This document shows, in pieces, positions 37,789 to 39,526 of a DNA stretch of 64,000 nucleotides. The notes beneath the pieces are model-generated. The model saw only the letters and a list, made by a program, of their open reading frames with translations, made no database searches and had not been told where the DNA came from. Position numbers and translations under genes: made by a program. Within the stretch, counting starts at the first letter, position 1; each line of letters opens with the position of its first letter. The DNA comes from an uncultured delta proteobacterium (GTDB taxonomy: Bacteria > Desulfobacterota > Binatia > UBA9968): contig CAVSLC010000022.1 of the NCBI GenBank assembly GCA_963728565.1, forward strand, positions 1 through 64,000. Reading direction: 5' to 3'.

Positions 37789-37970
37789 TCCCGCCAAGGC
37801 GCAAAGTCGCTAAGTTTATTAGGAAAGATGAAAACTTTACGAATGATTCGCACTCTCAATCTCCGAACTTCTCGAGCCTTTGCTCTTTGCCCGAGAGACT
37901 CCGAGATTTCGTTGAGGTTTTCTCGAAAGTTTGTGCTGCGCGCCTTCAGCGCCCGTGCGGCGCAATCTCC
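37789..37970. repeat. Degenerate REP-like intergenic palindromic sequence
   Basis: ccgccaaggcgcaaagtcgctaag arm with loosely complementary gcctttgctctttgccc arm downstream. Confidence 0.35.
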
Positions 37971-38000
37971 GGTTCCCTGATTCTAACTGGCGAAATCGGT

Positions 38001-38038
38001 GAAAACTTTGCGTCCCCCGGACGCGTTACTCAGGTGCC
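38001..38038 (-). promoter_or_regulatory. Candidate bacterial SECIS hairpin
   Basis: After the UGA: GGCACCU-GAGUAAC-GCGUCC-GGG-GGACGC-AAA-GUUUUC; perfect GC-rich upper stem with a G-rich loop 20 nt from the UGA. Confidence 0.6.
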
Positions 38039-39526
38039 TCAGAACGTTCGGTAATGACTTTGCCCTTCCGGTGGAGGTTCGGCATAGGCGGCAAACTCCG
38101 GCTGATCGTCGAAAGGCCGCGCTAGGATCTTCAGCAGCGTTTCGAACGGCGCGTAATCGCCTTCCTCCACCGCAGCACTCAAGGCTTCCTCAACTCGATG
38201 ATTGCGGGGAATGAACGCGGGATTGGCGCGCCGCATCGCCGGCGCACGGTCGGACTCTGCCACTGCTTCGCGCGAGAGCCGCGCCCGCCAATGTCCACTC
38301 CATCGGTCGTAGGCCGACGGATCGGCAAAGAGGCTTCGGATTCGTTCATGTTCACCTAGAGCCGCATCGGCGAGGTAACGAAAAGCCAACGTGTAATCAA
38401 CGCCGTTGCCCTCCATCGCCGCGAGAAACTCAGTCGCAAGGTTAAGATCGGCCTCTTCCTCAGTGAATAGTCCGAGCTTGGCGCGCATGCCTTTTACCCA
38501 GTAGCTTTCGTAACGTCCTGAAAAGGCGTTAACCACCTCCGTGGCGCGCGCGATGGCGCGGTTTGCATCCTCATCGATCAGGGGCAGAAGCGTTTCGGCC
38601 AGCCGCGCCAGGTTCCACTGCGCGATCCTTGGCTGATTGGCGTATGCGTAGCGGCCCTGAGTGTCGATGGAGCTGAAGACCGTGGCTGGATCGTAATGAT
38701 CCATAAAAGCGCAGGGGCCATAGTCGATCGTCTCACCGGATATCGTCATATTGTCGGTGTTCATCACACCATGGATGAAGCCCACGTGCATCCAGCCGGC
38801 AACGAGCGCCGCTTGTTTGTCGCACACCCGCTCGAGCAAGCCCAGGTAGGGGTTGGCCTGGCCCTTCAGCTCCGGATAATGGCGATCGATCACATAATCC
38901 GCCAGTTGCCGCACCTTGGCCTGCTCACCGCGGACGGCGAAAAATTGGAAGGTGCCGACACGGACGTGGCTGGCAGCAACGCGCGTCAAGACTGCGCCGG
39001 GCAGGGCTCGCTCGCGATAAACAGGCTCGCCTGTGACCACTGCAGCAAGTGCTCGCGTCGTCGGGATGCCAAGCGCATGCATGGCTTCGCCGATCAGATA
39101 TTCGCGCAATACGGGTCCGAGTGCTGCCCGACCGTCGCCTGCTCGCGAAAACGGAGTGGGACCTGAGCCTTTGAGCTGAATGTCACGGCGCCGCCCATAA
39201 CGATCGACCACCTCGCCTATCAGCAGCGCTCGCCCATCGCCGAGTTGAGGCACAAACCCGCCGAACTGATGCCCGGCATAGGCTTGCGCCAAGGGCACGG
39301 CTCCCTCGGGTGTTTCGTTGCCAGCAAAGATCCTGGCGCCCGCGTCCGAATCGAGAGCATCGGCATCCAGTCCCAATTCTTCAGCCAGCTGATGGTTTAA
39401 CTTTATGATCCGAGGCCGCGCCACTTGCGCCGCTTTCCATGGGACATAAAAACCCTCGAGTTCGCGGGCATAGGTGTTGTCGAAGGCGAATAGTTCGGCG
39501 CCGGAATCGTTAGTAATCTGGTTCAT
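38030..39526 (-). CDS. selO: Protein adenylyltransferase SelO/YdiU; probable selenoprotein ending YRTF-U-GT
   Basis: [38 protein letters not shown] motifs; in-frame TGA at 38041-38039 followed by GGC ACC TGA. Confidence 0.93.

Follow-up and report, generated by a model that had tools for sequence, protein, structure and literature searches.

Does a UGA codon close to the end of a bacterial selO gene terminate translation, or does it encode selenocysteine (Sec)? The question is raised by a stretch of 64,000 nucleotides (positions 1 to 64,000 of contig CAVSLC010000022.1, assembly GCA_963728565.1; hereafter the window) from an uncultured delta proteobacterium of the GTDB lineage Binatia, UBA9968. 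On the minus strand of the window, the open reading frame (ORF) called with translation table 11 starts with an ATG at 39526, encodes 495 amino acids (38039..39526) and ends ...HYRTF before a TGA at 38041-38039; two more codons and a second TGA follow, with a small hairpin behind them. A preliminary description of this DNA, made from its letters and a list of ORFs, had proposed that the first UGA is recoded as Sec and that the hairpin is a selenocysteine insertion sequence (SECIS). Our analysis makes it very likely that this codon, UGA496 of selO, encodes Sec. The UGA aligns with a Cys codon of relatives, the genome carries the Sec machinery, UGA and hairpin occur together, and the nucleotides past the UGA have the pattern of coding sequence.

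UGA, cysteine and the hairpin in SelO relatives

The product of the window gene is firmly placed by profile matches in the SelO/YdiU family, scoring 394.8 bits against Pfam SelO PF02696 (cut-off 22.8) and 584.3 bits against NCBIfam YdiU NF000658 (cut-off 431). Its scores against two NCBIfam equivalog models were both under the cut-offs (451 vs 850; 421 vs 900), for which reason we treat it as a distinct subfamily. The catalytic motifs had been described as intact, and alignment with solved SelO chains agrees with this, the HGVMNTDN and D[YF]GP segments being identical or conservatively changed. The HGVMNTDN and D[YF]G segments have catalytic-loop and metal-binding roles. In the alignment with the solved SelO of P. 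syringae (6eac; E 2.2e-108), the column of codon 496 is occupied by the C-terminal Cys of that protein (the C of ...EISCS). Standard annotation shortens SelO proteins of the window type by three residues, and the regulatory residue is lost.

In a scan of one genome per species, from which the best 80 of 575 SelO relatives were kept, 79 reached the C-terminus and 12 of these had TGA at the Cys codon. Within the window's order, SelO was matched in 48 of 123 genomes (one of them, G452, contributes no more than an N-terminal fragment and enters into none of the statements on C-termini or hairpins). The C-terminus was readable in 44 of them, with TGA at codon 496 in 25 and TGC in 19, the other four being N-terminal pieces only. 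A 401-genome sample of the phylum held no additional C-terminal TGA, and more distant SelO forms in that sample end ...CSMLSCSS. The pooled and deduplicated set comprised 114 distinct SelO C-termini, 26 with TGA and 88 with TGC or TGT at codon 496. All 88 non-TGA relatives end [FY]-C-G-T, as expected from the earlier statement that the subfamily normally ends in Cys-Gly-Thr.

Two of the TGA-type loci, L164 (G477:C13:143336-144815) and L165 (G483:C14:2683-4178), have the SelO match split into two to three pieces in different frames, and retain TGA and hairpin despite the split; the splits are frameshifts, which reflect either pseudogenes or assembly errors. One genome of the set has, beside its main copy, a second, divergent SelO (L160, G445:C946:829-2304; 61% identity), which ends ...QQTFCGT, is of Cys type and has no hairpin.

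The tail TTC TGA GGC ACC TGA and the hairpin GCGUCC-GGG-GGACGC were both recovered from the sequence and the ORF list. The hairpin begins 14 nt past the UGA and its apical loop lies 19-20 nt past it, so the coordinates agree with the distance of 20 nt given in the preliminary description; the centroid fold has a 6-bp stem and a 3-nt loop. Most TGA-type relatives have a 5-bp stem, GCGUC/GACGC, with the loop CGGGN. Bacterial SECIS elements place the apical loop 16-37 nt from the UGA, according to the text of PMC10778597, and the window hairpin falls within this range. In all 55 distinct TGA forms the loop starts at +21 to +27. The bSECISearch description reportedly asks for a G among the first two loop nucleotides, and all loops of the TGA forms (GGG, CGGGN, CGUGC, GUC, GGC and GGU) have one. 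A lower stem, GAGUAAC/GUUUUC, which had been suggested as a possible extension, is not supported, as relatives differ freely from one another in both spacer and 3' flank. Genome-wide, the hairpin 15-mer has 55 matches with at most two mismatches, and one exact copy occurs without a UGA, so the motif by itself is non-diagnostic. Since, in addition, the fold is no better than that of shuffled sequences (see below), the significance of the hairpin comes only from the relatives.

Among these, the pattern GCG[TC]C-N5/6-G[AG]CGC is present in 26/26 TGA forms and in 0/88 Cys forms. The five stem pairs of the main clade are formed in all 26 sequences, four of them never varying and one changing once from U-A to U-G; most of the 15 nt of the hairpin are invariant, and the sequence directly 3' of it is randomised. 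We also applied a positional criterion, written after the data were seen: the stem must have 5 bp or more, three or more of them G-C, the loop must be 3-6 nt long and start at +21 to +27 (counted from the U of the UGA), and one of its first two positions must be G. A hairpin of this kind was found in 26/26 genome TGA forms, 0/20 in-order Cys forms and 4/68 distant Cys forms. Metagenome contigs were scanned with the coding pattern Y-x-T-[FY]-TGA-G-T-TGA alone, the hairpin not being part of the query. At least 118 stretches matched, and 80 loci were taken from the matches listed. At least 33 metagenome contigs proved to be SelO C-termini: 30 matched the window protein in BLAST, and three contig-end fragments were identified by their tail. 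Of the 80 listed loci, 47 were chance matches, which served as a control. Among the matches listed, the positional criterion found the hairpin in 29/29 distinct metagenome TGA forms and in 0/42 distinct chance matches to this 24-nt pattern outside SelO.

Different stem sequences at the same place were seen in three metagenome loci only, representing two or three lineages; each of them keeps the loop position of the window, +23 to +26. L200 (81% identity to the window protein) has the hairpin GCGAGCCG-GGU-CGGUUUGC. L213 (1089-1134) and L236 (38-83) have a stem of 7 bp with a 3-nt loop, CUGCUCC-GUC/GGC-GGAGCGG, and the C-terminus ...NYRTY-TGA-GG[TC]-ACC-TGA; their proteins are ~61% identical to that of the window and 62-64% identical to alphaproteobacterial Cys forms. 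Compared with the window stem from the loop outward, the stem of L213 keeps the inner three pairs and has the next three changed on both sides.

These data bear on the simplest alternative, namely that UGA496 is an ordinary stop, that SelO is made without its last three residues and that the hairpin is a terminator-like element for transcript end or stability. Such a function would suit a hairpin that lies in the 3' region next to an A/T-rich stretch and has an unexceptional single-sequence fold, in a gene whose genuine stop, three codons on, is also UGA. The sequence past UGA496, however, changes in a way that is unexpected for untranslated sequence. Among the 26 TGA forms, codon 497 is GGC in 13, GGT in 9 and GGG in 4, and codon 498 is ACC in 24, ACA in one and ACT in one; the first two positions of both codons are invariant, the third-position changes are all synonymous, and the second TGA is invariant in 26/26. 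This pattern looks as recoding predicts, and not as a plain stop at codon 496 predicts. The spacer past the true stop varies in sequence, with 1-nt indels in L149 and L164, indicating that coding ends at the second TGA. A terminator, moreover, would be needed by both types of gene, whereas the hairpin accompanies 26/26 TGA forms and 0/20 in-order Cys forms; a terminator and promoter scan did not call it, because it has no T run. With the C-terminal Cys otherwise invariant in 88/88 relatives, we consider ordinary termination at UGA496 very improbable.

The true stop itself is TAA or TAG in 6/21 in-order Cys forms, as compared with TGA in 26/26 Sec forms; the metagenome set was of no use for counting stop types, because the search pattern fixed the stop as TGA.

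Sec decoding, objections and a possible redox switch

The window belongs to a genome of 28 contigs that is 80.6% complete (the window being contig C22). The presence of selA, selB, selC and selD, which the preliminary description had left to be checked, was established for all four. The genes selA (607.5 bits), selB (395.7 bits) and selD (382.3 bits), all over the curated cut-offs, lie head to tail at C28:34981-39495, outside the window, and a tRNA-Sec is present (74.2 bits, likewise over the cut-off), to which ARAGORN assigned the anticodon TCA. selD contains one in-frame TGA (...VKAAG-U-AAKLGP...), followed by a hairpin GUGCAA-GUU-UUGCAC, and SelD of this genome thus itself appears to be a selenoprotein. 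Five of the 13 matches to the peroxiredoxin family AhpC-TSA also have one in-frame TGA each. In two of them the TGA stands at a ...T-P-x-U-T/I-K... site with a GUU-loop hairpin downstream, so that, with selD, three other UGA genes have such a hairpin. Since the tRNA-Sec, the selA-selB-selD cluster and UGA-containing selD and AhpC-TSA genes are all present, Sec decoding is in active use in the window genome. PF10262 (Rdx) had no match in this genome. PF00384 matches had no stops within the matched part, a result uninformative on Sec because the Sec site of formate dehydrogenase lies outside that domain. The AhpC-TSA match on contig C16 is less clean than the others, with several stops close by.

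The same evidence speaks to read-through without selenium, in which a near-cognate Trp or Cys tRNA or a Cys-tRNA(Sec) would decode UGA496 and the hairpin would act as a general read-through stimulator. In a genome with a complete Sec machinery and six other UGA genes of known selenoprotein families, with UGA standing in place of a redox Cys (a classic Sec/Cys pair) and a hairpin whose size, distance and G-first loop match the bacterial SECIS description, we hold this to be highly unlikely, even though the residue inserted here is predicted from sequence alone and the loop of its hairpin is unlike the GUU loops that the other SECIS-like elements of the genome have.

A TGC or TGT codon misread in sequencing or altered in assembly, for which apparent indel errors elsewhere in the window (noted in the preliminary description only) might speak, was rejected as the source of the TGA and has next to no probability, as the same TGA recurs in 25 genomes of the order, in at least 33 metagenome contigs and in contigs from four runs, which belong to four studies. 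These runs, two from DNA and two from RNA libraries, had no other letter at 38039-38041, leaving the TGA as originally read. The differences between runs at 38036, 38042 and 38045 (GGC>GGT, TTC>TTT and ACG>ACC on the coding strand) were all synonymous. The run data are assembled contigs and show presence only, not expression level; for runs X3, X15 and X17, stretches without cover below ~38002-38010 were left out of the comparison. In run X1, one contig departs from the window at 38060 into a sequence whose last codon on the coding strand, in the place of the Sec codon, is TGC; the soil sample of that run thus holds a Cys-type relative beside the Sec type.

Several points weigh against Sec at codon 496. 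Selenium insertion into SelO is a prediction from the comparison of sequences, and the RNA-library contigs are no proof that selO is transcribed. The fold of the 76-nt region is no better than that of shuffled sequences (z = 0.30; 116 of 200 shuffles were equally good), the hairpin has a short stem of 5-6 bp, and its loop, either GGG or CGGGN, is unlike the GUU loops of the three other SECIS-like hairpins of the genome. When 37900-38150 was scanned against Rfam with E values as high as 10, no SECIS family was found, the sole match being a chance snoRNA; Rfam is not known to have a general bacterial SECIS model. In the main clade there is no covariation (four of seven pairs are invariant, and the score of 0.023 was matched by 218 of 500 shuffles). 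The count of 26/26 overstates the number of independent observations, because relatives are not independent, and the positional criterion was, as said, framed on data already seen. Finally, selA is present in 110/123 genomes of the order (a tally that includes G455, G474 and G494, on which nothing else here depends), among them 22/25 Sec-type and 17/19 Cys-type genomes, so the machinery does not discriminate between the two types.

As the main clade lacks covariation, support for Sec comes from the association of UGA and hairpin, from the synonymous-only change past the UGA and from the three divergent hairpins. The preliminary description had looked to relatives for both an alignment of UGA with Cys and a covarying hairpin: the former was found, 25 of the 44 order genomes having TGA, all with the hairpin; the latter was not seen within the main clade, and three divergent loci keep a hairpin at this place with other stem sequences. 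Its principal proposal, recoding of the UGA as Sec, is supported by the machinery, the UGA-hairpin association and the coding pattern past the UGA. Of the outcomes that it had named as speaking against itself, namely TGC or TGT at the codon, a genome without selABCD, and relatives all with Cys and no hairpin, none was what we found.

We infer the following sequence of events, in which SelB binding, selenium insertion and both the redox role and the partner of Sec496 are the predicted elements. At UGA496, the hairpin of 15-17 nt would recruit SelB carrying Sec-tRNA(Sec) to the ribosome; Sec would be inserted, Gly and Thr added, and translation would end at the next UGA, so that the SECIS of selO would lie wholly within the 3' untranslated region (UTR). 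The product would be a SelO-type AMPylase with Sec as its antepenultimate residue, where the Cys of the regulatory disulfide of the E. coli enzyme would be. In E. coli SelO this disulfide joins Cys272 of the activation loop to the C-terminal Cys476, the latter being Sec in higher eukaryotes (PMC7278666, in its text). In the alignment, residue 272 is Cys in other E. coli chains and Ser in the E. coli chain 6k20 (in GFISNHSD), which fits that account. In the window protein, Sec496 might be part of a selenylsulfide redox switch, its likeliest partner being Cys272 of DYGPC (own numbering), a pairing that the preliminary description had raised as possible and that may reasonably be inferred from the alignments: the residue is Cys in 106/106 aligned full-length sequences and is the only other invariant Cys of the subfamily. 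Its column is that of F260 of E. coli SelO, not of E. coli residue 272; the column of E. coli Cys272 holds Phe284 in the window protein, and the window Cys272 lies 12 residues earlier in the same segment. The positions of these features are collected in Table 1.

Table 1. Positions of the selO features in the window and of UGA-containing AhpC-TSA matches on other contigs of the genome.
Feature	Position	Strand	Remarks
selO coding sequence, read with UGA as Sec	38033..39526	(-)	498 codons, M1 ... Y-R-T-F-U496-G-T498; SelO/YdiU protein adenylyltransferase family
Cys272 codon TGC, ...IDYGPCAF...	38711..38713	(-)	invariant Cys; candidate partner of Sec496
UGA codon 496, proposed Sec	38039..38041	(-)	column of the C-terminal Cys of Cys-type relatives and P. 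syringae SelO
GGC ACC, Gly497-Thr498	38033..38038	(-)	translated solely upon UGA read-through
True stop TGA	38030..38032	(-)	TGA in 26/26 TGA-type relatives
Spacer GUAAC, stop to hairpin	38025..38029	(-)	5 nt; sequence varies, length nearly constant
Hairpin GCGUCC-GGG-GGACGC (SECIS-like, 3' UTR)	38010..38024	(-)	5' arm 38024-38019, loop 38018-38016, 3' arm 38015-38010
AhpC-TSA match with TGA (outside window)	C9:22016-22393		
AhpC-TSA match with TGA (outside window)	C9:28019-28399		
AhpC-TSA match with TGA (outside window)	C5:16158-16541		
AhpC-TSA match with TGA (outside window)	C13:63718-64089		
AhpC-TSA match with TGA (outside window)	C16:14356-14730		

History of the Sec and Cys forms

In a quick maximum-likelihood tree of 47 SelO proteins trimmed of their last residues, Sec and Cys forms are interleaved within the clade of the order; the best tree has 10 changes between them, at least three of which are forced by well-supported branches. 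Many in-order Cys forms still carry a homologous but mismatched hairpin, for example GAGTCA-GGG-AGACGC. A covariance model gave these remnants 14-25 bits, as compared with 46-68 bits for the Sec forms of the main clade, whose scores are high by construction because the model was built from Sec forms. The covariance-model alignment A3 also took in Cys forms and junk matches and was not used for pair counts. The decayed hairpins fit an ancestral Sec form followed by repeated replacement of Sec by Cys. The Sec form was thus probably ancestral in the order and was replaced by Cys several times, the number of events being poorly resolved. Since selA is kept in Cys-type genomes, loss of Sec from SelO is not loss of the Sec trait.

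The replacement may involve a second position. Residue 491 (codon 38056-38054, five residues before Sec496) is Arg in 17, His in 6 and Cys in none of the 23 full-length Sec forms; it is Cys in 11/15 in-order Cys forms and in ~4% of the 68 distant Cys forms. An exception is L163, a fragment of Sec type with Cys at residue 491. The distribution suggests that a CYxTFC pair replaces the lone Sec. A phylogenetically independent test of the association between Cys at -5 and the residue at 496 had only three supported independent pairs, and is without power for that reason.

L213 and L236 would share the Sec of the window form, with another hairpin sequence; Sec at this position would then either have arisen twice or have been kept over a long divergence. 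One could imagine all of this as a single natural experiment on Sec retention, in which an ancestral Sec-SelO, with its SECIS wholly behind the stop, was converted to Cys several times, the converts tending to gain a Cys at -5 (as if two Cys replaced one Sec in the redox switch of the AMPylase), and L213 and L236 represented a second, distant Sec lineage. We put this combined scenario forward tentatively, and think it rather doubtful that it holds in all its parts.

Comparison with known selenoproteins and SECIS elements

As late as 2020, a review described Cys, and not Sec, as the invariant residue of every prokaryotic SelO (PMC7278666). The deep-Sep study (mSystems 2025, PMC12013277) predicts, in its text, a Sec-UGA with a downstream SECIS-like structure for a SelO-like protein of Desulfosediminicola ganghwensis IMCC35004, and mentions that further bacteria that use Sec have SelO homologs with TGA and with Cys. 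The D. ganghwensis protein is listed in an AEM review of 2026 (PMC13188914) as PF02696, WP_136798779.1. As bacterial Sec-SelO was first predicted in 2025, the selO of the window is a new example and not a new kind. Like the D. ganghwensis gene, it is a SelO homolog of a bacterium, with a UGA predicted to encode Sec and, downstream, a structure resembling a SECIS; it differs in lineage, D. ganghwensis being assigned to Thermodesulfobacteriota/Desulfobulbia in a table of PMC12013277 and the window to Binatia. The word 'Binatia' is absent from the texts of PMC12013277 and PMC13188914, figures and supplements of both being outside this statement. Bacterial Sec-SelO is hence already known, only as a prediction; what is new is this clade, which is much better sampled and belongs to the ...TF[C/U]GT subfamily. 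It adds 25 genomes of one order and at least 33 metagenome contigs, and makes the evidence for recoding comparative instead of a single prediction.

The solved enzymes, E. coli SelO/YdiU (6iii, 6k20) and P. syringae SelO (6eac), are of the same family (E ~1e-106 to 1e-108) and have Cys where the window SelO has the proposed Sec. SelO of the same phylum may end in another motif, ...CSMLSCSS, in contrast to ...TF[C/U]GT of the window subfamily; the E. coli tail lies outside the aligned stretch. Vertebrate SELENOO is comparable to the window protein in that a residue close to the C-terminus of this SelO AMPylase is Sec where other lineages have Cys (PMC7278666). The vertebrate protein, however, has a CxxU motif and, in a distant 3' UTR, a kink-turn SECIS that works via SBP2 and EFSec, whereas the window gene has a mini-hairpin of bacterial type directly past the UGA and no match to a eukaryotic SECIS family in the Rfam scan, and position -3 relative to U holds Arg (YRTFU), so the eukaryotic-type CxxU is not found there. 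In this clade of soil bacteria, Sec and Cys forms of SelO toggle among close relatives, and such pairs of closely related Sec and Cys forms, in an AMPylase whose C-terminus is known to be under redox regulation, would be useful to test the advantage of Sec over Cys.

The arrangement of the hairpin also has a precedent. Mammalian thioredoxin reductase, which ends ...Sec-Gly-stop, was produced in E. coli with an engineered bacterial SECIS located within the 3' UTR (PMC10778597, in its text); as such an element works there, the hairpin need not be translated. The construct and the window gene share a Sec a few codons before the stop and a SECIS entirely behind it. The construct, however, is artificial and derives from the SECIS of E. 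coli fdhF, whereas the arrangement in the window is natural, is conserved across an order and uses a hairpin sequence of its own, and would thus be a case from nature of a bacterial SECIS with its whole length in the 3' UTR.

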